From the NCBI GenBank assembly GCA_000998025.1, contig LCJG01000002.1:891-64890 (forward strand): 64,000 bases of DNA. The letters are read 5' to 3'. The notes below the pieces were generated by a model that was not told the origin of the DNA, ran no database searches, and worked only from the letters and a program-made list of their open reading frames with translations. The position numbers and the translations under genes were made by a program. Shown here piece by piece: positions 13,761 to 55,554 of this stretch. Numbering within the stretch: position 1 is the first letter of the stretch; every line of letters starts with the position of its first letter. This DNA is from Candidatus Collierbacteria bacterium GW2011_GWB1_44_6 (GTDB lineage Bacteria; Patescibacteriota; Microgenomatia; UBA1400; MFAQ01).

Positions 13761-13780
13761 TAATTTTCTAAAAACAAAAA

Positions 13781-14764: not shown

Positions 14765-14769
14765 GTGGT

Positions 14770-20079: not shown

Positions 20080-21018
20080 CTAGGTGGTCTTGCGATAGAG
20101 TACGCCACGTGTCGCGCCGATTTTGTCTACATAGCCTCTTTTGACTAGCTGGGAGAGATCATAATGCAGAGTTTTCTGGTTTACAGATGGAAACCGGCGC
20201 CGGATCATGTCAAAAGTACAGAGTGGGTGATCGGAAATAATGTTTAATATTTCCCCCCGTCTAGGCATTAATAGGTCTTCCCTTTTTTCTTCTTTTCCGG
20301 AAATAGAAATGATTATTTCTCCGATCTCACCAGTCAAAGCTTCGAGAAAATACCTGATGAATTCCGTAACGTCACAAGAACTCTCAAGGGTACGGTAATA
20401 GTCCGACCGGTGAGTTTCTATATATTTTTCAAAAGGTATCAATCCTCTAAAACCATATCCTTTTTGTGTTAGAACTAAAGCCGAGATAAGCCTGCCGACT
20501 CTTCCATTACCATCCGCAAAGGGGTGAATTTTTTCGAATATGAATTGAGCAATGGCGGAAGTTACCGCTGGATGTTCTTTGAGACCAGCAATATAATCCA
20601 CATATTCATTCATAAGTTTCGGTAATTCAAAATGCATAGGTGCCAGATAAACGGCATTACCGGACTTATCAAATATGGCCCAAGGTTCTGATCTGTAGTT
20701 GCCCGCATTGTCAGAGATGTCTCTCATTACCAATCTATGGAGTTCTTTAATCTCCACAATGTCCAGATGGTGAATTTTATCGGAATGAACCCGATTGTAT
20801 GCAGACAGCAGATTTTGACTGGCTTTTTTGGGGGCTGATTCTTCTTCTATTAGTCCTTCAATGCGAGCGGAGTAGACCGCACTCCTGAGTAAAGATCTTT
20901 TTCTGAGTGCTAACTCCAGATGAGGCAAGCTTCTCGTGCTGTCGAGGGAGATTTTCTGAGCTTCAAGTTTGATGAGTAGCTGGTTTATCTCCGGAGTTAT
21001 CTGCCATTCGTATTTCAT
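20080..21018 (-). CDS. fic: Fic/DOC family protein (putative AMPylase/adenylyltransferase) with a C-terminal wHTH
   Basis: Canonical Fic active-site motif HPFADGNGRVGRL. The C-terminal roughly 70 aa look like a winged helix (TLHYDLSQLVKRGYVDKIGATRGVLYRK). Confidence 0.85.
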   Translation of the reverse strand: MKYEWQITPEINQLLIKLEAQKISLDSTRSLPHLELALRKRSLLRSAVYSARIEGLIEEESAPKKASQNLLSAYNRVHSDKIHHLDIVEIKELHRLVMRDISDNAGNYRSEPWAIFDKSGNAVYLAPMHFELPKLMNEYVDYIAGLKEHPAVTSAIAQFIFEKIHPFADGNGRVGRLISALVLTQKGYGFRGLIPFEKYIETHRSDYYRTLESSCDVTEFIRYFLEALTGEIGEIIISISGKEEKREDLLMPRRGEILNIISDHPLCTFDMIRRRFPSVNQKTLHYDLSQLVKRGYVDKIGATRGVLYRKTT

Positions 21019-21075: not shown

Positions 21076-21871
21076 AATATCCCGAGATTAAGTTTGGTAG
21101 CGCTAGGGGGTATTCTTTAAGTACTCTCATTTTTATCCGAAACATGCTTACCAAATTTAAAGGGAAAGAGACGTGGCGGGCTATCATTCGGCCATAGATC
21201 CAGTAGTAGTTCTTGAACCATTTATCCCTTGGCATTCTAGTACCCCCCGAAGAGGCCCGGTGATGGTAGACTAGTGCGTCTGGGGAAAAAATCATTCTGC
21301 CGAGCTTGGTGACTCGCAAACCGAGATCTGTCTCCTCAAACCCGGGTGGTGGGATCTTTTCATCGAATCCTCTCAGTTTTTCCAAAATACTTCTGCGAAA
21401 AGACATGTTGCAACCATAGGGAAATTGAACAAATTGTCTTCTGGTTCCCCAAAAATTCATCGTGAAGGAGGCTAGATATTTATCTGTTTTGCCAGTGACC
21501 GCATCGGTATCTTGAGGCATTTTTTCCCCATCATTGATTACCCTACCGGCGACTCCCAGAATTTTTTTGTCTGCATATTCTGCCAGGTGAGCTTTGATTG
21601 TTTTTGGGGTGATCTCGACATCGTCATCGAAGAAAAAGACAATCTCACCAGTGACTCTGGCGAGTCCGATGTTTTTAGCGATGGAAGTATTTGCTTTGGA
21701 GTTTTCAATATAAACGACATCCAATTTTTTTATCTCTTTTGGATCTTCTTTCTTATCACTTTGGTCAACGATAATTATTTCAGCACCAGGTTCAAACTTC
21801 CGGATTTGTTTAGCTAGACCCAAAGCTAGCCCTGGTCGATTGTAGGTGGGAATAACAACTGAGATTTTCAT
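21068..21871 (-). CDS. GT2 family glycosyltransferase
   Basis: MKISVVIPTYNRPGLALGLAKQI...IIVDQSD...FFDDDV. Confidence 0.8.
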   Translation of the reverse strand: MKISVVIPTYNRPGLALGLAKQIRKFEPGAEIIIVDQSDKKEDPKEIKKLDVVYIENSKANTSIAKNIGLARVTGEIVFFFDDDVEITPKTIKAHLAEYADKKILGVAGRVINDGEKMPQDTDAVTGKTDKYLASFTMNFWGTRRQFVQFPYGCNMSFRRSILEKLRGFDEKIPPPGFEETDLGLRVTKLGRMIFSPDALVYHHRASSGGTRMPRDKWFKNYYWIYGRMIARHVSFPLNLVSMFRIKMRVLKEYPLALPNLISGYFS

Positions 21872-23358
21872 TTTGACTTTTTCTCATCGAAGCCCCAGGA
21901 ATAGAGTTCTAATGGCCACTTTTCTTCCTGAGCGACAGCCATAGACTCGACCCTGAACTCCAATTTTAAGTTTTTCTTGATATAGCCCTTGACGTCATCC
22001 GGCATTAGACTTTGCCAGTCTTCGATAATTACTAGCCCACGGGGATATTTTTCTTGTTCTTGAAGAAAATATTCCTGACTAGGATAAATCATGACCGAAT
22101 AATAGTCGTGTTGGAATGGGGGTAGGTTAGTTTTCATAAATATGGCCGAAGGTAGGTGGAAGGTATACCAGGAACCATGATCAAAACCATTGGTGAAATA
22201 CGGAATATTATCAAAATCCGGAAATTGCTCGTATATTTTTTTATAAAATACTTTGTAGTCGGCATTTTGGACATCGGCAAAAAAATCGGCGTTTGGGGTA
22301 TAGTAGACTGCTGGTTTGCGGACTACTTTATAACCTCCGGCATAGATCAATAAAGCTACAAAAAGACAGACTACAGCGGAACCTTTATACAGCGAGAAGC
22401 TTACCTTTGTCCAAAATATTCCAAACTTAACAATGAGCAAACCAATTAAGGGTAATAGGTAGCGAAGATTTTTGCTTTCCTGAAAAAAGAGCCACATGAT
22501 CAAAACTGGAAGTGTTGAAAGCGCCAAACTTAATATGGATTTTTTATCTTTTATCAAGGCGAGCCCGAATATCGCCGGAAGTGTCAAAAAGGCATATTGC
22601 CTCCAGAAAAACTCTCTTAGGTAGGTAAAGTTATTTACTGTGGGTCTAAAAAACAGCGAAATAATGACACCAAGATCGAACAGGTAGAAAGCGATGAACG
22701 TCAGTCCTAGAACCAGGGAAAAGATATATATCGTGGGTAACTTTTTTAACCACGAGTAAAACCCGGGAAGTGTATAAGTAAGATAAAAAACTAAACAAAT
22801 AATCCCCAAAGGGTGATAGAAGATGGCAATAGAAGCACCTGCCAGGATGACAGCGTGGATCAATAATTTTTGCTTCATCTTTACAGTTTCCGAGAGCGTA
22901 AGACTTCCGTAGATGGTAAGTAGGTAGAGGGTTTGGATGGCAGCGTATGGCTTTGCCTGAGTTGAATTTGCAAGATTTAGTTGTAAGAACGTATACAAGA
23001 AAGCTGCCAATAGACCCCCTCCATGATTGGAGAACTTTTTGGCTACAAGATAGGAAGTGGCTATTCCGGCAGTACCCCACAAGACACTTGGCAACCTGGC
23101 CGCCCATTCCGAGATCCCAAACAGGCTAAACGAACCGAGAACGGTAATTATTTGAAAAAACTGATAACGTAGAGCTGAAAGCCCCTGCGATAAAGACGTC
23201 TTTCCAAGGAAAATATCTTTGGCAATGCCGGATACATATGCTTCGTCCGACCAGAAGGAATGATTCGTACTGATACCTTTTAGTCTAAAAACAAGTCCGG
23301 CTAATAGCAGTGTTCCCAGGGTAATGGAGGGTAAGTACCTTTTTATTTGTAGAAACAT
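21868..23358 (-). CDS. GT-C membrane glycosyltransferase, ArnT/PMT-like
   Basis: FRLKGISTNHSFWSDEAYVSGIAKDIF...WAARLPSVLWG matches the family N-terminal signature. Multi-TM with a C-terminal soluble domain. Confidence 0.6.
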   Translation of the reverse strand: MFLQIKRYLPSITLGTLLLAGLVFRLKGISTNHSFWSDEAYVSGIAKDIFLGKTSLSQGLSALRYQFFQIITVLGSFSLFGISEWAARLPSVLWGTAGIATSYLVAKKFSNHGGGLLAAFLYTFLQLNLANSTQAKPYAAIQTLYLLTIYGSLTLSETVKMKQKLLIHAVILAGASIAIFYHPLGIICLVFYLTYTLPGFYSWLKKLPTIYIFSLVLGLTFIAFYLFDLGVIISLFFRPTVNNFTYLREFFWRQYAFLTLPAIFGLALIKDKKSILSLALSTLPVLIMWLFFQESKNLRYLLPLIGLLIVKFGIFWTKVSFSLYKGSAVVCLFVALLIYAGGYKVVRKPAVYYTPNADFFADVQNADYKVFYKKIYEQFPDFDNIPYFTNGFDHGSWYTFHLPSAIFMKTNLPPFQHDYYSVMIYPSQEYFLQEQEKYPRGLVIIEDWQSLMPDDVKGYIKKNLKLEFRVESMAVAQEEKWPLELYSWGFDEKKSK

Positions 23359-35143: not shown

Positions 35144-36289
35144 TTATAACCGAGATGCGTAGATTTTTAGGTATTGGTTCGCTGTTTTAAGCGGTGATCT
35201 AGATCTGGCCATGACATAAACGTTGTCTTCAATTTTCTTTACCAGATGAGGATTGTTGGCTACCAGCTCAAAGGCTTCGTCCCACCTTGAATTATCGGTC
35301 AGGATACCCGTTTTACCATCATCTATGTCCTCAAGATAATGGCCTATTTTGGTCGCTATGATGCACTTGCCGTAGCTATTTGCGTGATATAGCGGTCCAC
35401 TAGAACCCATGGAAAGAACAGCGGGGATGATGACGCAGTAAGCCTTTTCATAGAGACTATCCTGCTCACTCTCTTCAATGAACCCTTTGTAAACTATTTT
35501 ATCCTGCAGACCGGAACTGGATATCATTTTGGTTATTTCCGTCAACGAATCCTCTTGTCCCTTAATGACGCCTCCGGCCAGAATTAATTTGAATTTTGTT
35601 TTGGGGTTTTTGGTGATGTATTTTTTGAATCCGTCCAGGGCGAAGCCAAGCCCCTTCCGCCTAGCCATATAGCCAAAATAGAAAAAATACGGTTCCTTTT
35701 TGCCGCTGTTATATGGTTTCTCAGGGATGGCTGCCGGAATGACGTTTACCTTTTTCTCATCCACACCGTAGTCTGACGTGATTATTTTTTTGGTTAAATG
35801 AGTATGAACAACGATAGAGTCTGAAATTAAGGAAATCAGCTTATAGACATAAGAAAAGAATAGCTTCAACATGAACGGCCTGACTATATTAGGATTTTGA
35901 TTGAAAATTCGGACAAATTCTGTATCAACCTGTTTTTTATATACCGCCGCGTGAACAGTGACTACGACTTTGAAACCCAGAAGTTTGGTGATAAATAAGA
36001 GCAAAGGGAAAAGGGCTGCTGTAAAAATACCTCCATACATATTAATTTCATGTTGAAAATGAACGAGGTCTGGTTTGTCTGTCTTTAGCTGATTTACAAT
36101 CTCCGAAATAAATGCCGGTGACTTTGTCCAGACAGGAATGATCCGACCGTGACCAGTAATCTCAAGGTTCTTTTTGTCTTTGTCCGTATATACCAGCAGC
36201 TCAACTTTTTTTGTTTGGACGAGCCCGCCTGTGATGTACTGAGAGTAATGCCCAGATGGCAACATACCTGTGATGAAGGCAATTTTCAT
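35144..36289 (-). CDS. GT-B fold glycosyltransferase (GT4/GT1-like)
   Basis: The N-terminus MKIAFITGML... is Rossmann-like. The C-terminus ...GKCIIATKIGHYLEDIDDGKTGILTD is typical of a GT4 donor-binding region. Confidence 0.6.
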   Translation of the reverse strand: MKIAFITGMLPSGHYSQYITGGLVQTKKVELLVYTDKDKKNLEITGHGRIIPVWTKSPAFISEIVNQLKTDKPDLVHFQHEINMYGGIFTAALFPLLLFITKLLGFKVVVTVHAAVYKKQVDTEFVRIFNQNPNIVRPFMLKLFFSYVYKLISLISDSIVVHTHLTKKIITSDYGVDEKKVNVIPAAIPEKPYNSGKKEPYFFYFGYMARRKGLGFALDGFKKYITKNPKTKFKLILAGGVIKGQEDSLTEITKMISSSGLQDKIVYKGFIEESEQDSLYEKAYCVIIPAVLSMGSSGPLYHANSYGKCIIATKIGHYLEDIDDGKTGILTDNSRWDEAFELVANNPHLVKKIEDNVYVMARSRSPLKTANQYLKIYASRL

Positions 36290-36297
36290 ATCTATAA

Positions 36298-37545
36298 TTA
36301 AACCACTTCTATCTTTGGGAGGGGAAATACCAAGTGCCCACCAGAATCCAGGTAAGCTTGTTCCTTACCTATTATATTGTCCTTAAAGTGCCAAGGTAAC
36401 ACCAGAAGATAGTCGGGCTTTAAGGCTTTAATTTCAGTTTCTGATTTAATCTCGATATCGGTTCCAGGAGCAAACCTTCCATATTTATACTCATTGACCT
36501 CAGCGATTGCCGGTAGATCTTTTTTGTCTAACCCAGCAAACTGAAGAATTACGTTTCCTTTTGTTGAGGCTCCATATCCATATATCGTTTTACCCTGTTG
36601 ATGAACCTTCTTAATAAAATTAACAAGACCTTCTCTATGTTCGAAAATAGCTTTGTTGAAGTCTTCGTACGTTTGAGGGTCTTGAAGATCTCTAGCTTCT
36701 TCTGCTTCGATTATTGCTCTAACCATTTTTTCGTTACCCAGCATCCGAGAATTTTTCTTCGCCAAAAAGACTTTGAAACTTGCTCCATTTGTTTCGTTTA
36801 GTTCGATGTCAACAATTTTCATACCGATTCTGGAAACCATCCAGCTTATTTGTCTTATGGCGTAGTATTCCAGGTGCTCATGGCAGATGGTATCGTAGGA
36901 AACATTGTCTATCATTCTTGGCATATAACTTTGCTCTAGTACCCAAACGCCTTCATCATCTAAGATCTCATAGACTTGTGCCATAAAGTCTATCGGGTGC
37001 TCTAAATCATAAAACATAGCCACTGATGTAACTACTTTAGCTTTCCTCTCACCGAATTCTTTCTTAAACACCTCAGATGAGAAGAAGTCGGGAATTTTTG
37101 TAATTCCACGCTGGTAATACATTCCAAATTTCTTAATTGTGGGATCAATACCAACTAAGTCGACACCGTCTACTCCGTACTGTGATAATAGTGTTCCGTC
37201 GTTGCTGCCGATGTCCAGGATAAGATCTCCTTTTTTTAGTTCGATTTTATTTTTTATTTGATTGGCTAATTCTTGAAGGTGAGCCACCATTGACCGATTG
37301 AGACCGGAGCGATAGCCGTAATTGTCACCATAAAGTTTTTCTGGTAAGTAATTGTGAGCTAATTGAAGTAGACCACAACTAATTCCGTCACGGTCATCAC
37401 ATTTAACGACAGTTAGAGGACCTTTTTCTACTTCCTCGTCCGCCTTAGGGAATACTCCACTTAGTGCAGTCTCACCAAGTTCAACAACTTTATAAATGTT
37501 TTTGTTTCCGCAAATCCGACATTCAGTAATTTCTCGGTAAAGCAT
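36298..37545 (-). CDS. SAM-dependent methyltransferase of the TylC3/NovU family (N-terminal zinc ribbon plus C-methyltransferase C-terminal domain); candidate sugar C-/O-methyltransferase
   Basis: N-terminal ECRICGNKNIYKVVELGETALSGVFP, a central MTase fold (LILDIGSNDGTLL), and about 415 aa, typical of this family. Confidence 0.65.
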   Translation of the reverse strand: MLYREITECRICGNKNIYKVVELGETALSGVFPKADEEVEKGPLTVVKCDDRDGISCGLLQLAHNYLPEKLYGDNYGYRSGLNRSMVAHLQELANQIKNKIELKKGDLILDIGSNDGTLLSQYGVDGVDLVGIDPTIKKFGMYYQRGITKIPDFFSSEVFKKEFGERKAKVVTSVAMFYDLEHPIDFMAQVYEILDDEGVWVLEQSYMPRMIDNVSYDTICHEHLEYYAIRQISWMVSRIGMKIVDIELNETNGASFKVFLAKKNSRMLGNEKMVRAIIEAEEARDLQDPQTYEDFNKAIFEHREGLVNFIKKVHQQGKTIYGYGASTKGNVILQFAGLDKKDLPAIAEVNEYKYGRFAPGTDIEIKSETEIKALKPDYLLVLPWHFKDNIIGKEQAYLDSGGHLVFPLPKIEVV

Positions 37546-37645
37546 TTTTGTACAATAAAATAATTATTATGTCTATAAAAAGACTACCTGTACTTTACAT
37601 CAACAATTAATACAAGTCTATAATTATTTTGAAAACTTCTTTCTA

Positions 37646-39238
37646 TCAGCAGGCCTTTGCCTCGTCGACATTGAGCTGTTTGGGAGAAAAGTTTGCCAGA
37701 AAGCCAAAGAACTTCCAGGCAGAAAAGAACAAGAACTTGATGTCATTAAAATTCCTAATTTCGATGATTTTCCTATATATAAACTGCGGTGATAAGGCTG
37801 CTTTGTAAAGATCTTGAGTGAGTTCCAGAACTTGGGTTTCTGTTAATGATGATTTCATGACAGGTTTCCTCATATCGTAGTCCTCATAGTCCTCGGATAA
37901 GAGCCAACCTTCCTTTTTACACTCTTTCCATAGCGGTGTGCCCGGATAAGGAATCACGACCGTCGCTTGAAGGGTATCCACATAACCCTTTTTGAAACAT
38001 TTTTTTGCCAATTCCACAGTGTTCTTGGCATCTTGATAGGACTCCCAGGGGTAGCCCATCATGATGGTGAGGTGTGGGTCTAGACCGCCCTTCTTGGCCA
38101 TACGAACGCCTTCTTCAATTTGCTCTACTTTAAGTCCTTTATCAAGATGATCAAGAGTGTATTGATTGGCCGATTCCATACCATAGAGAATAAAGCGGAA
38201 GTTGGCTTTGCCCATAAGATCGTAGTGTTCCTGCTTGAGGGCGTTGAGACGCATATTGCAGCCAAAGACAACTTTTTTGGCGTATCCCGACTCGATCATC
38301 ATATTACAAAAATCCATGAGAGGCTTGCCGATCATAAAGGTACCGGCATCGTCGAAGATTTCTTTGACATGATATTTGTCTACCACATGTCTGACCTCGT
38401 CAAAAAGTCTTTGAGCAGTAAACCTTCGATATGACCCAATTGGGTTGATGGTATGGTCCCAAACACAGAAAGTACACCGGTTCCACCAACAGTCACGACC
38501 TGAGTACATATAGGTGGCCGGAGTGTATTTGTAGTTCCCGTTATAGACGGAATATAGTTCCCATTTAGTCAGGTCACGGTCTACAAAAGGCAACTCGTTC
38601 AGGTCGTGAGCAATACTGGGTTTGCCGCTATTAGCATAAACAACTTTTCCTTTTCTTTTGATTGTTTCCGCTGGTTTTTGTTTGATTCTCTTGTCGTCTG
38701 TTCTCCACCAAACCCCGCCCTCTAATGGTGTGAGATCCCTCGACTGCGCTCGGGATGACGAGGAGAGATGGTCTAGTAAGTTGACGATGACAAAGTCATA
38801 ATCTCCTCCGGTGATAAGATAGTCTACTTTGCTGTTGTCCATCATTTCTTCAGGAGCAAAAGTGACGTGGTCCCCTACCCAAACCAGAAGTAATTTTGGG
38901 AGTTCTTTTTTGAGATCTTTGATTATTTGCCAGTGTTTTTTAACAATTGGGGATTTGGTCTCCACCATCAGGACGTCTGGTTTGAATTTTTTTAACTCGC
39001 GGACCCACTCTTTGTAGGTTTGCTCCTCCGCAATACCATCCATCCATTTCACCTTATATCCATGCTTCTGAGCATTTGAGGCCGCATAGGCAGGCACCAT
39101 AGGATAGATGTATGTCTTGGCGTTGAAGTACTGGAACTGGCGGTTTTGAGAAAGTAGCATGACGCCCTTGTCGGAAGGTATGGGGGGGTAGCCAATGACT
39201 AAACGGAGAGATTTTTTTAATTTTGATTTTTTTAACAT
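37646..39238 (-). CDS. B12-binding-domain radical SAM protein (class B rSAM-like)
   Basis: N-terminal Rossmann-like B12-binding region (KPDVLMVETKSPIV...LLLVWVGDHVTF), then a Cys triad SGRDCWWNRCTFCVW. The spacing is CX4CX2C, not the canonical CX3CX2C. Confidence 0.55.
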   Translation of the reverse strand: MLKKSKLKKSLRLVIGYPPIPSDKGVMLLSQNRQFQYFNAKTYIYPMVPAYAASNAQKHGYKVKWMDGIAEEQTYKEWVRELKKFKPDVLMVETKSPIVKKHWQIIKDLKKELPKLLLVWVGDHVTFAPEEMMDNSKVDYLITGGDYDFVIVNLLDHLSSSSRAQSRDLTPLEGGVWWRTDDKRIKQKPAETIKRKGKVVYANSGKPSIAHDLNELPFVDRDLTKWELYSVYNGNYKYTPATYMYSGRDCWWNRCTFCVWDHTINPIGSYRRFTAQRLFDEVRHVVDKYHVKEIFDDAGTFMIGKPLMDFCNMMIESGYAKKVVFGCNMRLNALKQEHYDLMGKANFRFILYGMESANQYTLDHLDKGLKVEQIEEGVRMAKKGGLDPHLTIMMGYPWESYQDAKNTVELAKKCFKKGYVDTLQATVVIPYPGTPLWKECKKEGWLLSEDYEDYDMRKPVMKSSLTETQVLELTQDLYKAALSPQFIYRKIIEIRNFNDIKFLFFSAWKFFGFLANFSPKQLNVDEAKAC

Positions 39239-39301
39239 GTGTTTTTGTTATTGATGGTTGAGATTGCTTCTCCACCAGAGGCGGATCGCAATGACGGCGC
39301 A

Positions 39302-39568
39302 CTAGGGAAATATTTGCTTACCGTTTTTATCTTTAATAATAATAGCAAGGATTGGGCAACACCGGGCAGCTTCAAGTACTTTTTCAAAAGTATCGCCGTC
39401 GGGATCGGCAATAACAGCCTTGCCGTCTGAATCTCTTAGCAAGAAGGTAAGGGGGGCGGCGATCGAACAAGGACCGGCAGCAATGCATTTGTCGAGATCA
39501 ACGGTAATCTTATACCCGTCGGTGCGAGTGGCTTCGCTGATTGATTCGGTAGTGTTAACTTGGACCAT
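39302..39568 (-). CDS. small ferredoxin-like protein (single-cluster Fd fold with atypical Cys spacing)
   Basis: ITVDLDKCIAAGPCSIAAP...KVLEAARCCPILAI follows the single-cluster ferredoxin pattern, but with CX5C...CC ligands. It lies immediately downstream of the radical SAM gene. Confidence 0.45.
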   Translation of the reverse strand: MVQVNTTESISEATRTDGYKITVDLDKCIAAGPCSIAAPLTFLLRDSDGKAVIADPDGDTFEKVLEAARCCPILAIIIKDKNGKQIFP

Positions 39569-44450: not shown

Positions 44451-45398
44451 ATGAAAACAAAAAATCCTTTGTTTTCTGTAGTTATTCCCGTCTATAACGA
44501 GGAAGGTAATGTCTTACCTTTATTCAAAGAAATAAAAAAAGTGATGACTAGGTTGGGGAGTTTTGAGATAATATTTGTAAACGACGGCTCGACGGACAAC
44601 ACAGGAGTTGAACTGAAACGGTTGAGAAAGGTAAAAATCGTACAATTTAGAAAGAACTTTGGGCAATCTGCGGCGCTGGATGCAGGCGTAAAGGCTGCCA
44701 AAGGAAAGTATGTCGTTACGCTGGACGGAGATGGTCAAAACGACCCGGCTGACATACCCAAGCTATTTGGAAAACTGAACCAGGGTTACGATGTGGTATG
44801 CGGGTGGCGATACAACAGAAAGGATAACTGGATACGAAAATTTATTTCTGAAGGAGCAAGGAGGCTTAGGTCCGTTTTGGTCGATGACAAGGTGCACGAC
44901 GCGGGATGTACTCTGAGGGTATACAACAAGGTGTGTTTTACGGACTTAGATTTGGCCGGTGAAATGCATCGAATGATCCCAGCGATTCTTAGGTGGAGGG
45001 GTTTTAGAATAACTGAACTCAAAGTGAACCATCGGCCAAGAATAATTGGAAAGAGTAAGTATGGAATGAGCCGCACCATAAAGGGTTTTCTTGACATGCT
45101 TCTAATCTGGTTTACTAGAAAATACAACAACCGTCCGTTGCATCTATTTGGCACGGTCGGTCTGTCCCTTATATTTGCCTCAGTATTGTTATTGTCGGCT
45201 CTGGCAATATTGAAAACTTTTTATGGCTATAGTCTATCTGATAAGATCTGGCCACTGGTTGGCATGATAAGTTTCTTAGCGGGGATACAGCTGTTGGTCT
45301 CGGGTATTCTGGCCGACTTAACCATAAAAAATAATACTGTCAGTAAAGAATGGATGATTAAAACAGTGAGGGGACCTAAGAAGATTTCTACGAAATGA
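44451..45398 (+). CDS. polyprenyl-phosphate glycosyltransferase, GtrB/ArnC-like GT2 with two C-terminal TM helices
   Basis: LFSVVIPVYNEEGNV...FVNDGSTDNT...FRKNFGQSAALDAGV...VVTLDGDGQNDPADIPKL, plus a C-terminal TM pair (LHLFGTVGLSLIFASVLLL..., ...WPLVGMISFLAGIQLLVSGIL). Confidence 0.85.
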   Translation: MKTKNPLFSVVIPVYNEEGNVLPLFKEIKKVMTRLGSFEIIFVNDGSTDNTGVELKRLRKVKIVQFRKNFGQSAALDAGVKAAKGKYVVTLDGDGQNDPADIPKLFGKLNQGYDVVCGWRYNRKDNWIRKFISEGARRLRSVLVDDKVHDAGCTLRVYNKVCFTDLDLAGEMHRMIPAILRWRGFRITELKVNHRPRIIGKSKYGMSRTIKGFLDMLLIWFTRKYNNRPLHLFGTVGLSLIFASVLLLSALAILKTFYGYSLSDKIWPLVGMISFLAGIQLLVSGILADLTIKNNTVSKEWMIKTVRGPKKISTK

Positions 45399-46521
45399 AA
45401 TAACCACGGGTAAAGAAGAATATGCTGAAAAGAGTCATAGTAAGACAGAGAGTGTAGTAGGCATAGCGGAAATAGGGGTGGTTTTTTTCAAAAAATAGCG
45501 CAAGATATAAAAAGACAGGGAACAAAACTAGGGTGAAACGGGGAACACTCATAAAAGTTCCTGTGAGGGTTGGCAGGATAAAGGATAAAAGAGAGTAGAG
45601 CCAATACGAAAGTCGGATTTTTTTGAGTGAGAAGATGAGAACAAGTAAGATCAGGGACGCGGAAAGGAGTTCCAAGACGACCGTAAAAAATAATGGGTCA
45701 AGGTGATCCGTAAAAATTAACATCTTGGCATAGCGGAAGTAAACTTGATGAAGGAGGATTAGTTTGTCCATGGACCTCCCAGTAAAATTTGATTGAAGAG
45801 TGGCAAAAAAGAGGGCGTTGCCTGTTTTTATATATTGAAACCGCATAAAGGAGATCAGCCCTAAAGGTGGGATAGCAAGCCATATGGTTGAGAGGTTTAG
45901 GCTTTTCCGAATGTCTTGCCCGTGAGCAAGCCAAAATTCGTAAATAAGTGCCGGCCAGAGAAAAATGCCGGTTATCTTGGTAGCCGAAGCAATGGCCGCA
46001 AAAGTGCAAGCAAGGAAAAATTGGTTTTTCCTGGCGAAGTAAAAGGAAAGAACGGCAAGTAATATAAATAAAGATTCGGTGTAAACCGAACCAAAGAATA
46101 GAGATGTGGGAAAAAGTAAGGTTAGGATAATGGTTTCTTTGGCGATCTTTTTTTTGAAGTCGATGGCGACCAATTTATAAAGGAAATAAAGAGCCAAAAT
46201 TAATGAGAGGTGGGAAATGATCAGACCGGAGGCAAGGTAGTTGCCGAAGACATTGAAAGTCTTTATGGCCCAGGGGTAGACTGGGAAAAAAGCATAGTCC
46301 ATATCGGTCTTGTGCTGGTAACCATAGCCAAACTCGGCTAAGTCCAAGTAGTGGAGTCCGTCAAAATTTGACCACATAGAGAAGACATTGGCGACTGATG
46401 GGGTGGGGGTAAGATTGGTAAAACGGGTGCGTGGTGCAAGGAGGAACATGGCCGGGAGAGCCACTATGACAATCAGGAGTCTCCAGCCAAGAACAAGTTT
46501 AAGGATTTCTTTGAGAGACAT
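45388..46521 (-). CDS. polytopic membrane protein, possible GT-C (GT87/DUF2029-like) partner of the GtrB-like synthase
   Basis: 377 aa with about 10 TM helices. It is convergent with and overlaps the GtrB-like gene. Confidence 0.35.
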   Translation of the reverse strand: MSLKEILKLVLGWRLLIVIVALPAMFLLAPRTRFTNLTPTPSVANVFSMWSNFDGLHYLDLAEFGYGYQHKTDMDYAFFPVYPWAIKTFNVFGNYLASGLIISHLSLILALYFLYKLVAIDFKKKIAKETIILTLLFPTSLFFGSVYTESLFILLAVLSFYFARKNQFFLACTFAAIASATKITGIFLWPALIYEFWLAHGQDIRKSLNLSTIWLAIPPLGLISFMRFQYIKTGNALFFATLQSNFTGRSMDKLILLHQVYFRYAKMLIFTDHLDPLFFTVVLELLSASLILLVLIFSLKKIRLSYWLYSLLSFILPTLTGTFMSVPRFTLVLFPVFLYLALFFEKNHPYFRYAYYTLCLTMTLFSIFFFTRGYFIS

Positions 46522-49653: not shown

Positions 49654-50424
49654 GAAGCCACGATAGCGGAAGTACAAGCTCAGAAAAGTACCTAGGGGTT
49701 TGAAAAATAAATAATTTAAGGTATTAAAGAGGTTCACTTTGACACCAGCATCTTTGAGCTGGTGGGCATGGAGGCTAGAGTAAGAATTTTCTCTGAGTAA
49801 ATATCGGGAAAAATTTGGCGTAGCAAGGTGGTCTAGATCAGACATGAGCCAACCAGTGACACCCTTGACTATCATTTGTTCGTGAACATCCTTGGCAGGA
49901 AGTCTGGCTTTACCTCTTTGGAATAGGCGGATGACCGGATCGGGGTATTGGCCGGCGTTCTCGAGATATCTATTCAGGAAGAAATTTTTTCTAGGTAGGT
50001 AGTATGCGGAGGCCGGGGATCTGAGCAATTGTGGCTCAGAAAAAATCTTTATTATTTTATTTATTGAGGATTTGAGGGGAGAAATCCAACTGTCATAACC
50101 GAAATATGATCCCTCCAAGATGCCGAGTATTTCTTTGACCATTTCTTTGGTCACTCTTTCGTCCGCGTCCATTTGCAGAATCCAATCTGATTTGGCCGAT
50201 CGATTGGCAATATCTTTTTGAACATGGAAAACAGGATTATTTGGCCGCAGTATAACTTTGACCCCCAGCTTTTTGGCGATCTCAGCAGTATTGTCCGTGG
50301 AGTAGCCATCAACGACGACAATCTCATCGGCAAAATCCTTGACCGATTCCAGACAGGCGGCAATATTCGCCTCTTCATTATATGTAGCGAGAGTGACAGA
50401 AATGGTTTGGCGTTTTGTTTTCAT
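49549..50424 (-). CDS. GT2 family glycosyltransferase
   Basis: ISVTLATYNEEANIAACLESVKDFADEIVVVDGYSTDNT. Confidence 0.8.
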   Translation of the reverse strand: MKTKRQTISVTLATYNEEANIAACLESVKDFADEIVVVDGYSTDNTAEIAKKLGVKVILRPNNPVFHVQKDIANRSAKSDWILQMDADERVTKEMVKEILGILEGSYFGYDSWISPLKSSINKIIKIFSEPQLLRSPASAYYLPRKNFFLNRYLENAGQYPDPVIRLFQRGKARLPAKDVHEQMIVKGVTGWLMSDLDHLATPNFSRYLLRENSYSSLHAHQLKDAGVKVNLFNTLNYLFFKPLGTFLSLYFRYRGFLDGFPGFVFSLYSGLHHAFSYMKLWEIYKDEEYK

Positions 50425-52232
50425 TTTTTGATGGTTGAGATTGCTTCGTCGACTTCGTCTCCTCGCAATGGCGGAGGGGAGGTGGAGATAAATTTGAACA
50501 TGGTGCCTCCGGAAGGAGATTTTACTGTACCGATGACGTTGTTGTCATCTACTTTCTCTTCGGCGGTTATCAGGAGGGTATTCGGAAGCAACTTGTCCTG
50601 TTCATAATTGATAGTCCGGAATTCATACTTGCCTAGTTTGCGGCCGGTGGCAAAGCCAAAGTGGTCGGGGGAAGACATAACAATATCTCTTTGCAGATCC
50701 GCCGGCGGATACTGGGTAAAGAAAGCGATCAGAATATATGGCTGGTCGTAGCGGTCGGTAACGATAATGTGATCGTATTTGTCGTAATTATCTTTGGTGT
50801 AAACGGCGATTTGATCGAAGCCATACTGCCAAGCATACGGAAGCTCTTTGGGATAGTGGACGTAATACATATGTAGATAACGGGAAAAGTCGTAAGAGAT
50901 AAATAAGGTTGCGATGGCTAGGAAAATGGGAAGTAGTTTGGGAAGGTGACTTTTGATGAACACAAAAAACTCAACAAGACCAAGAGCGGAAATAATCATC
51001 AGTGGGACAGCCATATTTGCTGCTCTTAGGGCGTGAGGGGACTGGAAGGTAATTGAGGCGGCCAGGGGTGCAATGAGGAACCAAGCGAAAATTAGTTTCT
51101 TGCCAGAAGAATCCAACTTTATCAAAGAAATAAATCCTAGAACGAAGACGGGCAGAAGGACCAGTATACTTTGACCGGTTTCCGGCACCTTGCTTCTGGC
51201 TATGGCGTCACCATTGAGAAAAAGGAAATCGGGAGAGTAGTGCGACAAATAGTTTTCGATAAATCTGAGCGAATATGAAAGGTAGCGGTTGTGAATAAGC
51301 CTGACCGGAAGAGTATCTTTATCGGTGTGCTGGAGCCGGTAATTGGTGGCCTGCCACTCCGGCCCGGTGTCGGCAAAAATGGAGACACCTGAAAAACGCG
51401 ACTGGCCTTCTTTGGAGAGAAGTTGGGTGGCAATTGGAAGGGAAAGAAGGAGGCCGAGGAGACAGGAGAAGAAAAAGGTTCTGGTGGTTGTTGGAGTGAG
51501 ATCCCTCCACTTCGGTCGGGATGACGATAAAGCAGGAATGACAACAGTACCTGAGAATAGATCTTTCCAGTAGATAATGACCAAGGATAAAGAAAGTAGA
51601 GGCGAGATGACTCTGGCGGAATGATAGGTATAGAGACTGAGAGCGAGTGAAGTGACAAAGAGAAAGAAATAGTTTGCCTGCCTCCCGGCAGGTAAAGTTT
51701 TTTCAATCCCTTTCAAAAAACCCCAGACCCCAAGAAGCATGAAAAAAGTGGCGGCGTTTACTTCCCAACCACCCCGGGAGAAGTGAAGATGCCAGGGGGA
51801 AATGGCGAGGAGGAGGGCGGAGATATGAGGAAAGTATTTATATGTTGTAGTTACTGGATGGATTCCCGCCTTCGCGGGAATGACAGCAGTGACGGGGGGG
51901 AATAATAGTTTGACGATTAGGTAGATGAGGAGGACGCTGGCGACTCCCAATATGGCGGAGGGGAGACGGACGGCCGTGACGGTGAGGCCGAGGAATTTGA
52001 CGAAGGGCAGAACCAGATAGAAATAGACGGGGGGTTTGTAATCGTCAAAGGAACGGAAGACCTGAGGCCAGGCGACAGAGTGTTCGTCTTTGCCCGTCTC
52101 AATAAGACTCCAAGCATTGTAGCCGATCGCCGCTTCATCAGCATTGAGACCAGCGGGAAAACTGCTCAGAAAAGGCAGTCTGAGTAAGGCTGCTAAGATG
52201 ACAATGGCGATGATGAAAAAATGTTTTTTCAC
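50421..52232 (-). CDS. GT-C glycosyltransferase, GT39/PMT_2 family (ArnT/Pmt-like) paralog 1 of a tandem array
   Basis: LLRLPFLSSFPAGLNADEAAIGYNAWSLIETGKDEHS...AVRLPSAILG is the canonical PMT_2/ArnT N-terminus. 603 aa. Confidence 0.8.
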   Translation of the reverse strand: MKKHFFIIAIVILAALLRLPFLSSFPAGLNADEAAIGYNAWSLIETGKDEHSVAWPQVFRSFDDYKPPVYFYLVLPFVKFLGLTVTAVRLPSAILGVASVLLIYLIVKLLFPPVTAVIPAKAGIHPVTTTYKYFPHISALLLAISPWHLHFSRGGWEVNAATFFMLLGVWGFLKGIEKTLPAGRQANYFFLFVTSLALSLYTYHSARVISPLLSLSLVIIYWKDLFSGTVVIPALSSSRPKWRDLTPTTTRTFFFSCLLGLLLSLPIATQLLSKEGQSRFSGVSIFADTGPEWQATNYRLQHTDKDTLPVRLIHNRYLSYSLRFIENYLSHYSPDFLFLNGDAIARSKVPETGQSILVLLPVFVLGFISLIKLDSSGKKLIFAWFLIAPLAASITFQSPHALRAANMAVPLMIISALGLVEFFVFIKSHLPKLLPIFLAIATLFISYDFSRYLHMYYVHYPKELPYAWQYGFDQIAVYTKDNYDKYDHIIVTDRYDQPYILIAFFTQYPPADLQRDIVMSSPDHFGFATGRKLGKYEFRTINYEQDKLLPNTLLITAEEKVDDNNVIGTVKSPSGGTMFKFISTSPPPLRGDEVDEAISTIKK

Positions 52233-53872
52233 TGAGCTTTGGTTTTGATGATTCTTAAAGCAACTTCCCCATTGGGATATAAAACGTCCATGTGTTTATC
52301 AATGGTGGGTAGAGAAAAATCGAAGTCCTCGGGAAAGTTCCCAATAGTACCCACAAAAATAGTATCCGGCTGGGTTTGTACTTCGGAAAGCCCTGACTGG
52401 TGGAACTCTACCCGGCCAACATTAGCAACCTTGCCGACGTCTAGCCCCCCCGACTGGAACTCATTAATTTTTTGATAAGTGGCGGGGTCAAAGCGGGAAT
52501 AAAAAAGATAGAAGATGTATGGCTGGCCAAAGACGTCGGTAATGACCGCTTTGCTTTCCGGGTACTCACTGACAAACTGAATCGCCTCTTTGAAGCCATA
52601 TTGGAATTCTCTGGCGTAAGTAAAATTTGTATGGACAAATAATAGATCAAGAAAATAAACGAAGAAGACTAGGGTGGCGAGAAGATTAATAAAGAAGAAC
52701 AGCTTAATTTTGCTAAAAGCGTAAAACGCCCCTAAACCACAAATTATGGCTAAGGGAATGGTCAAGAAAAAGGCCCTGACGGTGGAGTACTCTGACAAAG
52801 TAAGTGAGCCAGTAATGGGTGCGAGTAACAGTAGCCCGGCTATGAGCAGTGAATTCTTTTGATGAGAAAATTTTATAAGAAAGACTAACCCAAGCAAGAA
52901 CCATACTATATCAAAAGGCAGAAGCATGCCCATGCCCGGAATGTGACCTCGTTCGACGATATCGGTGCCTTCGAAGAAGAGCAAATTGGGACTGAGATGC
53001 TTGAGATAGCGGCTGGCGACAAGACGTGAAGTGAGCTGGAACTGGTTGTGAAATAAATTTAGACTGACCGGATTATTCTCGTCGATGTTTTTTATTTCCT
53101 GACTAATTCCCGGACGGTAACCAAAGATGCTGAGACGTTTTAACCGATTTCCCGCTTCTCCGGAAGCAGTTGACAGGTAAAATGCCAAAAAGAAGGCCAT
53201 CGAAAAAGCAAGAAGCGCTCTATTGAATTTGACTGAGGTGTATTGTTTGAAGTTTGTAGAAAAGTCTGACCAAAAAAGTATGACCGGAAGTAAGAGAACT
53301 AAGGGGGTAAGAAGCTTGGCGGCCTGATAAGTCAGAAAAGTAAGCAAGGCCAGGACAATGGACCAACCGAGGTACTTACCCGAGTGAATAAAGCGAATCA
53401 GAAAATATAAAGAGAAAAGTAACAGAGTGGCGAAGATATTGGTTTCCCAGGCTCCCCGGCTGAAATGAATATGCCAGGGCATAAGGGCTAGAGAGAGGGC
53501 ACAAAAAGACGCCAAGAGAGTCTTGTTTTTGTTTTCTCTAACAATTTCAGAGACCAATAAGAAGACACCGTAGATGGCTAAGATACCAGCCAAAGCGCTG
53601 GGGAGACGGGTGGCGAACTCGGAGAGACCCAGAATGGCGATGGGAGGAATGGCTAAATAGACATAAAGTCCGGGTTTGTAATCACCGAAGCTTTTAAAAA
53701 CAATGGGCAGGAACTTTCCGAATTCATCCCGGCCGGTTTTTATAATGGAAAAAGCGTTGTAACCCAAAGCAGCTTCGTCCCAGGTGAGAGCGTTGGGTAG
53801 TGAACCCAGCTGATAAAGTCTGAGGAGAGAACCGATAACTATGGCAAAGATTAATAACCAATATTTTTTCAT
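52229..53872 (-). CDS. GT39/PMT_2-family glycosyltransferase paralog 2
   Basis: LLRLYQLGSLPNALTWDEAALGYNAFSIIKTGRDEFG...ATRLPSALAG. Confidence 0.8.
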   Translation of the reverse strand: MKKYWLLIFAIVIGSLLRLYQLGSLPNALTWDEAALGYNAFSIIKTGRDEFGKFLPIVFKSFGDYKPGLYVYLAIPPIAILGLSEFATRLPSALAGILAIYGVFLLVSEIVRENKNKTLLASFCALSLALMPWHIHFSRGAWETNIFATLLLFSLYFLIRFIHSGKYLGWSIVLALLTFLTYQAAKLLTPLVLLLPVILFWSDFSTNFKQYTSVKFNRALLAFSMAFFLAFYLSTASGEAGNRLKRLSIFGYRPGISQEIKNIDENNPVSLNLFHNQFQLTSRLVASRYLKHLSPNLLFFEGTDIVERGHIPGMGMLLPFDIVWFLLGLVFLIKFSHQKNSLLIAGLLLLAPITGSLTLSEYSTVRAFFLTIPLAIICGLGAFYAFSKIKLFFFINLLATLVFFVYFLDLLFVHTNFTYAREFQYGFKEAIQFVSEYPESKAVITDVFGQPYIFYLFYSRFDPATYQKINEFQSGGLDVGKVANVGRVEFHQSGLSEVQTQPDTIFVGTIGNFPEDFDFSLPTIDKHMDVLYPNGEVALRIIKTKAQ

Positions 53873-55554
53873 GGAAGTTCGATTATTTTGAAGGCGACAG
53901 ATCCGTCCAAGAAATTAATAGTCTTGAGAACATTAGCACCGGCAGGGATGCGGTCAGGGGAGGCGACCAAGAGGCTCTTGGAAGTGGGCATTATGTCACC
54001 GCTTTCGAGAGTGAGAGAAGTAAATTGTTCCACGGGAATTTGCCAGTCATTTACGAAGTAATAGTCACCTACCTTATCGGTCCAGAACCAGTCCGACTTC
54101 CCAAAACGGATATTATCACCTCCGGGCTGAAGCACTTGAGGATGAATCCGGTTATAAAATGCGTAAAAAATGTGTGGTTCTCCATAAAACTTGGAAATGA
54201 AGAACTTCGGATATTGTTTTTGAGTATTCAAAAAATCTAAAACTTCCCGGTAACCATATTGCCAAGATTTTGAGTAGCTCTTGGCGTAAGTCACGAAATA
54301 ATCATTTGCATAGATGGCAAAGTTGCCAATAGTGAGAAGGAAAATAACTGCAGTCAAAATTTTTCCGGTGGTGGCAGATAGCTTGGTCTGCAAGAACAGT
54401 AGTCCCAAGCCGCCGATAATTACCATGGCAGGGATCATGGGATTTGGACGTAGGGCCTGAGGGGGATCGACAGTAAGAGCTGAAGCGATAGGGGAGAGCA
54501 GAAACCAGGAAAGGATCAGTTGGTGGGATTTTTCACCCGGGTTTTTAATAATGAAAAATAGACCGGCGATAAACAAAACCATGACAGGAAAACCTAAAAG
54601 ATTTCTACCGGGAATGGCAAACTGGAACTGAGCTCCCCTACTCTGATTAAAAAAGTCAGTGGTGAAATAGCCAAAATAATTATTGATAAATGTTTGAACA
54701 AAATAGACAGGGCGATTGTAGACAAATTTGGCGACAAGAGGTGGTAAGCCGCTCTCGATTCTTTTCTGGCCAAGGGTATAGGCCGTCGATTCCGTGATGA
54801 TATTAAGTTTGCCATAGCGGGCAGTACCCGTGCCGGCAAAAATTTGATAAGCGACAATAGAGGCGAAGGCTCCGAGAATAAAAATAGAAAATAAAAGAGT
54901 GCGGGTGATTTTTATTTTTTTCCAATAAATGACGATGAAAGCTAGGAGAAGGACCGGGACAAAGACCCTGGCAGTATTGTAGGTATGCAGTGACAAACCA
55001 AAAAGAAAGGCAGACGGAATAAATAATACAGATTTTTTTAGACCGGTGAGTAAAAAATAGGTAGCGAAAATAATCAGAGTCAGTGCGAGATTGGCTTCTA
55101 GCGCCGGGCGGGAAATAAAGAAATGCCAAGGAAGAAGAGCAAGGAAGAAGGCTGAGAGTAATGGGAGATTTAGAAAATGCTTCTGTTTGGGCAAAAAATT
55201 CGCAATGACAGATGAGGAAAAGAGTTCACGAGTGAGGAGGAAGATACCGGGGATGGCAAGAGTGCCGGCCAAGGCGGAAATGAAACGGAGAGAGAAGGTG
55301 GTGAGACCAAAAAGCCAAACAGGGATTACAGAGAGATAGATATATAAGGGAAGTTTGTAATCTCCAAAAGCACGGAAGATCAAAGGGAATTTGACTCCCC
55401 ATTCGTCTTTGCCGGTCAGCAAAATGGAGTAGGCGTTGTAACCATGACTGATCTCGTCCCAGTTGGGAGAGACGGGAAATTTGTCCAGTAGAAAAAATCT
55501 CAGGAAGCCACCAAAAAGAGTGATTAGCAGTATATAAAGTAGAGTTTTTTTCAT
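53869..55554 (-). CDS. GT39/PMT_2-family glycosyltransferase paralog 3
   Basis: FLRFFLLDKFPVSPNWDEISHGYNAYSILLTGKDEWG...SLRFISALAG. Confidence 0.8.
   Translation of the reverse strand: MKKTLLYILLITLFGGFLRFFLLDKFPVSPNWDEISHGYNAYSILLTGKDEWGVKFPLIFRAFGDYKLPLYIYLSVIPVWLFGLTTFSLRFISALAGTLAIPGIFLLTRELFSSSVIANFLPKQKHFLNLPLLSAFFLALLPWHFFISRPALEANLALTLIIFATYFLLTGLKKSVLFIPSAFLFGLSLHTYNTARVFVPVLLLAFIVIYWKKIKITRTLLFSIFILGAFASIVAYQIFAGTGTARYGKLNIITESTAYTLGQKRIESGLPPLVAKFVYNRPVYFVQTFINNYFGYFTTDFFNQSRGAQFQFAIPGRNLLGFPVMVLFIAGLFFIIKNPGEKSHQLILSWFLLSPIASALTVDPPQALRPNPMIPAMVIIGGLGLLFLQTKLSATTGKILTAVIFLLTIGNFAIYANDYFVTYAKSYSKSWQYGYREVLDFLNTQKQYPKFFISKFYGEPHIFYAFYNRIHPQVLQPGGDNIRFGKSDWFWTDKVGDYYFVNDWQIPVEQFTSLTLESGDIMPTSKSLLVASPDRIPAGANVLKTINFLDGSVAFKIIELP

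Follow-up and report, generated by a model that had tools for sequence, protein, structure and literature searches.

What does a radical S-adenosylmethionine (SAM) enzyme do among the glycosyltransferase genes of Candidatus Collierbacteria bacterium GW2011_GWB1_44_6, a bacterium of the Candidate Phyla Radiation (CPR), and which of its neighbors does it work with? The gene lies on contig LCJG01000002.1 (assembly GCA_000998025.1), in a stretch of 64,000 nucleotides (positions 891 to 64,890, forward strand) that was analyzed as a whole and is called the window here. Gene limits and translations were taken from the open reading frame (ORF) list of the window. At 36298-39568 this list holds three minus-strand ORFs, transcribed in the order ferredoxin, radical SAM protein (hereafter rSAM), and methyltransferase. 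A preliminary description had placed the three genes on one strand, as their exact limits in the ORF list bear out; its wording that the ferredoxin follows and the methyltransferase precedes rSAM is right in plus-strand coordinates, whereas transcription runs the other way. We lean, with slightly more confidence than doubt, toward the view that rSAM and the ferredoxin carry out the radical step, a tailoring reaction, in a conserved cassette that assembles a sugar or a short glycan on a lipid carrier in the membrane.

Gene order was compared across 80 species-level CPR genomes with a close rSAM relative; genes were called and matched to those of the window, and each count is given over the loci with enough flank for the gene in question. 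The conserved partners of rSAM are upstream genes on the same strand. A 363-aa membrane-anchored family 2 glycosyltransferase (GT2) was found in 60/65 loci and is the tightest conserved partner, followed by a 271-aa GT2 (55/64), the ferredoxin (56/76), and a MOP flippase-like protein (38/57). Their order is (GT-C glycosyltransferase), MOP flippase, small GT2, membrane GT2, (ferredoxin), rSAM. In the window, as in WWE3-type loci (cluster 9), the first gene of the module is a PMT_2-type GT-C gene. Loci L028 and L044 encode both GT2s as a single fusion of ~608 aa, the N-terminal half corresponding to the 271-aa enzyme and the C-terminal half to the 363-aa enzyme. A promoter and terminator scan of 32-45 kb of the window gave counts at or below shuffle expectation and resolved no operon boundaries. 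The closest genomes with an rSAM relative are Candidatus Collierbacteria and other Microgenomates, and the exact rSAM protein also occurs on groundwater metagenome contigs. Many third-party records of metagenome-assembled genomes with the CPR-type locus (L001, L003, L004, L007, L010-L013, and others) are titled "uncultured Pseudomonadales," "Gammaproteobacteria," or "Bdellovibrionales"; these titles look like taxonomic mislabels, the best matches being Collierbacteria, WWE3, and Roizmanbacteria.

The two glycosyltransferases also accompany a sister family outside the CPR, which was retrieved with a profile of mid-distance relatives. This large family (~485 aa, 39-55% identical to the window rSAM) is annotated from the archaeon Methanoperedens, Omnitrophica, Kuenenia, and unnamed bacteria, and 113/120 of its members carry the motif CWW[GA]KCxFC (CX4CX2C), with CX7 in six. 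In all seven distinct genomic contexts examined, a GT2 of 280-348 aa (PF13632-type) lies directly upstream of the radical SAM gene, and the two genes usually overlap at their stop and start codons; a second GT2 of 242-270 aa lies further upstream in 6/7 and a Polysacc_synt flippase is present in 4/7. The smaller of these GT2s matched PgfS (88.8 bits), ArnC (75 bits), PpgS (73 bits), and dolichyl-phosphate hexose transferase best, and the larger ones MftF, EpsD, and AglG. Neither a ferredoxin nor a C-methyltransferase was called in any of the seven contexts.

Because the partners of rSAM are two GT2s and a flippase, its substrate would be membrane- or lipid-linked rather than a GDP- or dTDP-6-deoxyhexose, the D-rhamnose-type target that the preliminary description had proposed. 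The 271-aa GT2 best resembles PpgS (51.8 bits) and ArnC (24.1 bits) among NCBIfam models, all far below cut-offs, and its nearest solved structures are, weakly, GtrB sll0501 and ArnC. For the 363-aa GT2, in which a hydropathy scan located C-terminal transmembrane helices, the best NCBIfam matches were MftF, AglG, and EpsD, all below cut-off. The 496-aa GT-C protein is a candidate extracytoplasmic transferase using a lipid-linked donor.

The rSAM protein itself scored 56.8 bits against the radical SAM family PF04055 (cut-off, 29.5) and, at the borderline, 32.2 bits against the B12-binding family PF02310 (cut-off, 32.1). An AlphaFold (AF2) model built from 45 homologs reached a predicted local distance difference test score (pLDDT) of 82.3 and a predicted template modeling score (pTM) of 0.86, with low confidence in the cluster loop only. 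In Foldseek searches of the PDB this model aligned with radical SAM barrels and, over both domains, with AprD4 (best, expectation value [E] 7e-19), MgmA, TsrM, OxsB, CysS, and TokK. Since these matches to class-B-type enzymes span both domains, the model confirms the Rossmann-like N-terminal domain and supports a class-B-type architecture, as had been suggested from the sequence. Sequence and profile searches of the PDB reached only MgmA and AprD4; OxsB, TsrM, and TokK did not appear at useful E-values.

Comparison with curated families placed rSAM, by sequence, in an uncharacterized branch of the HpnJ/BchE neighborhood. HpnJ led the NCBIfam models (152.8 bits, nearly full length), followed by BchE (112.2 bits); these two scores fall far short of the cut-offs, and methylase families stayed below 70 bits (HpnR 67, PhpK 63). 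A bona fide HpnJ (TIGR03471, cut-off 577.6 bits) was rejected on this score and for want of an HpnI-like partner: neither the 363-aa nor the 271-aa GT2 gave an HpnI match at E up to 0.01, nor did the non-CPR orthologs at E up to 0.1. Of 77 representative relatives, none scored as HpnJ at a cut-off-equivalent level (best E-value, 5.9e-141), and the annotated neighborhood, the part of the genome that was covered, showed no hopanoid genes. The family is large, with 4914 homologs among 8000 candidates scored. The 120 closest, at 63-87% identity, include WWE3, Roizmanbacteria, and other Patescibacteria, and in a 45-sequence alignment the motifs FDDAGTF (equivalent to the GGE SAM motif) and GMES were invariant. 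No relevant paper on the cassette came up in literature searches that combined CPR or Patescibacteria with radical SAM proteins, ferredoxins, and glycosyltransferases, or undecaprenyl and GtrB with radical SAM and cobalamin, in keeping with the earlier view that the chemistry is uncharacterized.

The iron-sulfur cluster motif had first drawn attention to the protein. Translation confirmed the triad CWWNRCTFC, with CX4CX2C spacing. The motif was identical in 116/120 of the closest homologs, the other four differing by one residue each, and the spacing was kept in 120/120; C250, C255, and C258 were invariant in the 45-sequence alignment. Because the triad shares alignment columns with the canonical CP[YF]xCxFC (CX3CX2C) of remote relatives, it is the real cluster site, lengthened by one residue. 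A motif scan for an alternative canonical triad in rSAM returned the CX4CX2C site only, and the invariant C311, C327, and C440 form no such motif. The same spacing has been described for the class-B enzymes OxsB (PMC9204698) and GenD1 (PMC4340712); it is real and conserved, yet it is no new feature of class B, and the novelty that the preliminary description attached to it falls away. Among relatives the length of the Cys loop is a hot spot, with CX3, CX4, CX7 (CWWRKDGGCTFC), and longer forms.

Two further observations concern this motif. Five full-length paralogs, 28-37% identical to rSAM (P0136, P0142, P0143, P0148, and P0160), retain the B12-like and radical SAM domains and lack all three cluster cysteines (e.g., RDSDWGQSSLGS); judged by sequence, they may be non-catalytic relatives. 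Five other homologs (P0122, P0123, P0124, P0126, and P0127) carry inteins with Hint and LAGLIDADG domains inside the nine-residue motif. Four of these inteins sit just before the third cysteine (…CTF | C-intein-N | CSW…) and one just before the first (RD | C-intein-HN | CWWRR…), two independent insertion sites in one Fe-S motif.

The ferredoxin matched Fer4_13 (38.5 bits; cut-off, 24.5) and Fer4_15 (29.1 bits), so that the ferredoxin fold assigned earlier stands; the "unusual CX5C...CC" ligand set assigned with it does not. C28, C34, C70, and C71 are all present in the protein, of which only C28, C34, and C71 are conserved across 43 homologs. C70 is mostly Ser, which rules out the CC pair as unusual ligands. 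The conserved pattern is C28-IAAGP-C34 ... C71-P72, that is CxxAxxC…CP, with Ala invariant at the second-Cys position. Aligned ferredoxins from Desulfovibrio africanus (FdI), Thermotoga maritima, and Pyrococcus furiosus (1dax, 1rof, and 2z8q) have CxxCxxC...CP, the second Cys being replaced by Ala here. CxxAxxC...CP typically marks three-Cys, [3Fe-4S]-type ferredoxins, and the protein is predicted to belong to that ordinary type. It is presumed to be the electron donor to rSAM. Its description as a dedicated, private carrier is supported by its frequency beside rSAM in the CPR loci counted above; the seven non-CPR loci lack it. In Roizmanbacteria-type loci (L032, L042, and L049) a gene for a 273-aa FTR1-family iron permease stands between ferredoxin and rSAM. 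In L018 and eight other WWE3-type loci (cluster 11) the same position is occupied by a ~320-aa protein with a weak DUF4015 match only (Pfam).

Combined, these data suggest the following pathway, in which the domain architecture, the conserved Cys triad, the synteny, and the families of the neighbors are observed, and substrate, electron route, reaction type, and topology are inferred. Family resemblance and gene order suggest that the small GT2 (ArnC/GtrB/PpgS-like) would load a sugar onto polyprenyl phosphate, and that the membrane-anchored GT2 would add to or extend the lipid-linked sugar at the cytoplasmic face. Known radical SAM chemistry and the motifs conserved here suggest that the ferredoxin in CPR bacteria, or general cellular reductants elsewhere, would reduce the [4Fe-4S] cluster bound by C250, C255, and C258; cleavage of SAM would then yield a 5'-deoxyadenosyl radical that abstracts hydrogen from the lipid-linked sugar. 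By the same reasoning from families and gene order as for the first steps, the MOP protein would flip the modified unit, and the neighboring GT-C enzymes would probably use it outside the membrane. As to the reaction, radical chemistry without methyl transfer, a rearrangement or redox change like those of HpnJ, Cds, or AprD4 (epimerization, ring contraction, dehydration, or oxidation), is slightly favored, with belief and doubt about balanced, over cobalamin-dependent C-methylation, which takes a distinctly smaller share of a rough split; lipid-directed or other chemistry makes up the remainder. More speculatively, and we are doubtful here, the GT2-GT2-rSAM cassette could be a previously unrecognized cross-domain pathway (CPR, Omnitrophica, anammox Planctomycetes, and Methanoperedens) in which rSAM remodels a lipid-linked sugar before export, e.g., by contraction to a carbocyclic cyclitol, as has been put forward for HpnJ and Cds, or by another carbon-skeleton change, the CPR having recruited the three-Cys ferredoxin.

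Several points weigh against this pathway. Every GT2 assignment lies below its curated cut-off, the small GT2 reaching only 26.9 bits against GtrB/ArnC. The best whole-length Foldseek likeness of the 363-aa GT2 (AF2 model, pLDDT 89.8) is to the HAS/BcsA membrane GT2 synthases, with template modeling (TM) scores of 0.5-0.57; DPMS and GtrB are not its closest structures, so the acceptor need not be a polyprenyl-phosphate sugar. The likeness to HpnJ reaches just 153 bits where 578 are needed, and the lack of an HpnI-like match extends to both GT2s. Most characterized class-B enzymes are methylases, so the prior favors methylation. The ferredoxin is missing from about a quarter of the CPR loci and from all non-CPR loci examined, and the potential of three-Cys [3Fe-4S]-type ferredoxins is usually higher than ideal for reducing a radical SAM cluster. 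Adjacency of the genes does not prove that rSAM acts on the product of the GT2s. Literature searches found no experimental work on any family member.

Methylation is the alternative that survives best. Here the cassette and the substrate class stay the same, and rSAM would be a cobalamin-dependent radical C-methyltransferase (like GenK, GenD1, Fom3, or MoeK5) placing a methyl group on an unactivated sugar carbon, with the ferredoxin serving both cluster reduction and re-reduction of cob(II)alamin; we regard it as possible though rather unlikely. The fold matches to class-B MgmA, TsrM, CysS, and TokK and the threshold score for PF02310 agree with it, as does the prevalence of methylases among characterized class-B enzymes (PMC12931638). 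GenD1, a sugar C-methylase, also has CX4CX2C (PMC4340712), and MoeK5 and Fom3 co-localize with HpnJ in a sequence network (PMC9204698). On the other hand, the methylase models score 40-85 bits lower than HpnJ and BchE (HpnR 67 and PhpK 63 versus 153 and 112). The cobalamin site bears on both sides. In OxsB, TsrM, and TokK the cobalamin tail is held by a Gly-Gly motif (beta4) and a Gly-Glu motif at the start of alpha5 (PMC9204698). The 45-sequence alignment puts G122-D123 of the rSAM family at the Gly-Gly position and G145-D146 at the Gly-Glu position. Conservation of G122 and of G145-D146 favors a methylase, whereas the canonical GGxH/GEGE (GGVH and GEGE in the L022 paralog) is altered to G-D-H and G-G-D-Y-D in rSAM, which does not. 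To our knowledge, CPR bacteria generally lack cobalamin synthesis. The best structural match, AprD4, possesses the N-terminal domain too and binds no cobalamin (PMC12931638), so cobalamin dependence cannot be taken for granted in rSAM.

A second alternative, which we consider improbable, is that rSAM modifies a lipid, either the polyprenyl carrier or a membrane lipid acceptor, by methylation, cyclization, or cross-linking, like other lipid-directed enzymes of the HpnJ/BchE neighborhood (HpnR, HpnP, the ladderane candidate, Tes, and Grs; lipid-modifying radical SAM enzymes are reviewed in PMC13459092). The nearest curated families are indeed lipid- or tetrapyrrole-directed (HpnJ, BchE, HpnR, and the ladderane radical SAM protein), and a polyprenyl synthase gene directly follows the radical SAM gene in the Omnitrophica locus. 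That neighbor occurs in 1/7 loci only, however; the strictest partner is a translationally coupled glycosyltransferase and not a lipid-synthesis gene, and the loci are otherwise typical of sugar tailoring, with DegT, short-chain dehydrogenase/reductase (SDR), and glycosyltransferase genes.

The remaining gene of the trio encodes a C-methyltransferase (CMT) of the TylC3/TcaB9/MtmC family with a zinc domain, as had been recognized earlier. It matched MtmC (4rv9, E 2e-57, residues 4-414), 3ndi (5e-40), and 5t64 (1e-36) over its full length, with TcaB9 and KijD1 among the matches; Methyltransf_13, Methyltransf_23, and Methyltransf_14 all scored above cut-off, and the zinc domain has four cysteines (C9, C12, C49, and C57). 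In TcaB9-type enzymes, methylation at C3 beside a 4-keto group proceeds through enolate chemistry, with no need for a radical partner. In the window CMT is separated from rSAM by an AT-rich gap of 100 bp, the largest gap, and from the neighboring GT4 gene by 8 bp. Locus L011, a close relative, has rSAM, GT4, methyltransferase, methyltransferase, and GT4 as in the window, without CMT. In L057 and L072, CMT sits in a cassette of its own, in the order Gmd-like dehydratase, CMT, reductase-like SDR, GT4, with identities of 43% to the window's Gmd, 57% to CMT, and 61% to the adjacent GT4. Such a cassette suffices for a 3-C-methyl-6-deoxyhexose without a radical enzyme. CMT is thus an ordinary neighbor that pairs with the GT4 gene and is not part of the rSAM module, and it should be left out of any reconstitution of the radical enzyme. 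In the simplest reading it would act, apart from rSAM, on a nucleoside diphosphate (NDP)-4-keto-6-deoxyhexose and make 3-C-methyl-6-deoxyhexose for the adjacent GT4. The proposal of the preliminary description that ferredoxin, rSAM, and a TylC3-type methyltransferase form one unit whose substrate is a nucleotide-activated 6-deoxyhexose (GDP-D-rhamnose or its 4-keto precursor, for instance) can point to the adjacency of the three genes on one strand, to Gmd-like and SDR genes in the same window, and to a CMT within 5.5 kb downstream of rSAM in 6/52 CPR loci, and is nonetheless very improbable, being largely refuted by synteny: CMT is immediately downstream in 0/64 CPR loci, and the L011 junction, the gap lengths, the separate cassettes, the seven non-CPR loci, and the enolate chemistry all speak against it.

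The positions of these genes and of other features are collected in Table 1.

Table 1. Features of the window and of related loci (prefix L), with position, strand, and basis of assignment or remark
Feature	Position	Strand	Basis or remark
Gmd-like and SDR genes	12828-15798		
Gmd	14770-15798		
Bro-N domain gene	17763-18602		
Fic/DOC gene	20080-21018		
GT-C gene, PMT_2-type	21868-23358		
ORF, 704 aa	23376-25490		
ORF, 569 aa	26768-28477		
ORF, 735 aa	28369-30576		
GT4 gene beside CMT	35144-36289		
Predicted NDP-hexose 3-C-methyltransferase (CMT), 415 aa	36298..37545	-	Methyltransf_13, _23, _14; synteny; Zn-binding domain, class I SAM methyltransferase domain, C-terminal domain
rSAM, 530 aa	37646..39238	-	Pfam PF04055 + PF02310; Rossmann-like (B12-binding-type) domain ~10-160, linker with LxxLPFxDRxL, radical SAM barrel ~240-450
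Cluster triad CWWNRCTFC (C250/C255/C258), rSAM residues 250-258	38465..38491	-	Translation
Single-cluster ferredoxin, 88 aa	39302..39568	-	Pfam Fer4_13 + Fer4_15
Membrane-anchored GT2, 363 aa	39625..40716	-	Pfam PF00535; GT-A domain + 3-4 C-terminal transmembrane helices
Soluble GT2, putative polyprenyl-phosphate-sugar synthase type (ArnC/GtrB/PpgS-like), 271 aa	40726..41541	-	Pfam PF00535
MOP-type flippase-like membrane protein (Polysacc_synt_3), 416 aa	41574..42824	-	Pfam; multiple hydrophobic segments
GT-C glycosyltransferase (PMT_2, ArnT/PMT-like), 496 aa	42880..44370	-	Pfam PMT_2
GT-C gene, PMT_2-type	45388-46521		
Large membrane-protein ORFs	50421-57263		
Large membrane-protein ORFs	59197-62354		
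GT2-GT2 fusion	L028:2913-4733		
GT2-GT2 fusion	L044:1509-3341		
FTR1-family iron permease gene	L032:5086-5907		
~320-aa protein between ferredoxin and rSAM	L018:4957-5925		
His-rich ~165-aa membrane protein	L057:7690-8187		
Extra class-B radical SAM gene	L022:11850-13262		
Extra class-B radical SAM gene	L083:12905-14290		
Extra class-B radical SAM gene	L086:15440-16705		
Extra class-B radical SAM genes	L087:11933-13456, 15868-17358		
Extra class-B radical SAM gene	L088:8185-9597		

Three PMT_2-type GT-C genes were confirmed in the window, and several large membrane-protein ORFs toward its end may be further genes of this type. For three ORFs of the glycan locus (704, 569, and 735 aa) Pfam gave no match at E<=0.001. 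A Bro-N domain gene and a Fic/DOC gene separate the sugar-nucleotide genes from the glycosyltransferase block and suggest an insertion of mobile or toxin-like character in this glycan region. Directly downstream of rSAM, L057 and 14 other loci (cluster 8) encode a His-rich membrane protein of ~165 aa that matched neither a Pfam nor an NCBIfam model. The glycan loci often carry extra class-B radical SAM genes (PF02310 + PF04055) as well; the L022 copy, the sole one read in sequence, has CPYRCTFC, GGVH, and GEGE. In these anaerobes, radical modification of surface sugars seems to be frequent.

Class-B-type radical SAM enzymes perform some of the hardest reactions in biosynthesis, and function is known for a minority of their subfamilies. 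The rSAM subfamily is large, strongly conserved, and common to CPR, archaea, and other anaerobic bacteria, and its tie to two glycosyltransferases yields a concrete substrate hypothesis, namely the product of both GT2s. CPR genomes are very small, yet they keep rSAM and a private ferredoxin in surface-glycan loci, so the modification may matter for the envelope or for host attachment. If the cross-domain reading is true, a radical-chemistry step joins polyprenyl-phosphate-based cell-surface glycosylation.

How does the cassette compare with known systems? For CMT the parallel is with TcaB9, MtmC, KijD1, and TylC3; the characterized enzymes come from actinomycete antibiotic pathways and act on dTDP-sugars, whereas CMT shares a CPR locus for cell-surface glycans with a Gmd-like dehydratase. 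OxsB and GenD1 share with rSAM the CX4CX2C spacing, the domain organization, and sugar-type substrates (PMC9204698, PMC4340712). The Foldseek match to OxsB has an E of 3.6e-16; structural identity is ~14%, however, with no sequence-level match to OxsB, and the one-residue insertion in rSAM is probably independent of theirs. AprD4 (PDB 6fd2), a radical SAM 1,2-diol dehydratase of aminoglycoside biosynthesis, is alike in its sugar substrate and N-terminal Rossmann-like domain and unlike in lacking cobalamin (PMC12931638) and in using a soluble pseudodisaccharide. It is the best structural match (TM 0.66/0.76), with a sequence match in the barrel, at 13% identity and an NCBIfam AprD4 score of 33.8 against a cut-off of 500 bits.

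Three-component systems that modify glycans through polyprenyl phosphate include GtrB/GtrA/GtrV and ArnC/ArnD/ArnEF/ArnT, and in the latter ArnD modifies the lipid-linked sugar before flipping. The cassette resembles them in encoding together an ArnC/GtrB/PpgS-like GT2, a flippase, and a GT-C enzyme, and differs in that its flippase is MOP-type rather than GtrA or ArnEF and in its second, membrane-anchored GT2. We know of no radical SAM protein that serves as the modifying enzyme of a Gtr/Arn-type system.

HpnJ is the best curated family for rSAM, residues 41-514 aligning with positions 29-467 of the 472-position model, and the two share the same two-domain architecture. From a gene deletion, without biochemical study, HpnJ has been proposed to contract the ring of a lipid-linked glucosamine by radical chemistry, giving a cyclitol; it is a non-methylase proposed to act on a sugar already placed on a membrane lipid by way of the GT2 HpnI (PMC13459092, PMC9204698). 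Apart from the score (152.8 versus 577.6 bits), rSAM differs in being only ~24-31% identical to HpnJ-like relatives, which have the canonical CX3CX2C, and its substrate cannot match the hopanoid pathway unless hopanoids are present, of which the neighborhood gave no sign. For the calditol synthase Cds of Sulfolobus, a radical SAM enzyme, contraction of a lipid-linked hexose to a cyclopentyl polyol has been proposed, the archaeal analog of the HpnJ reaction (PMC13459092); the likeness of Cds to the system described here is one of proposed logic only, and the cassette too has an archaeal home, in Methanoperedens.

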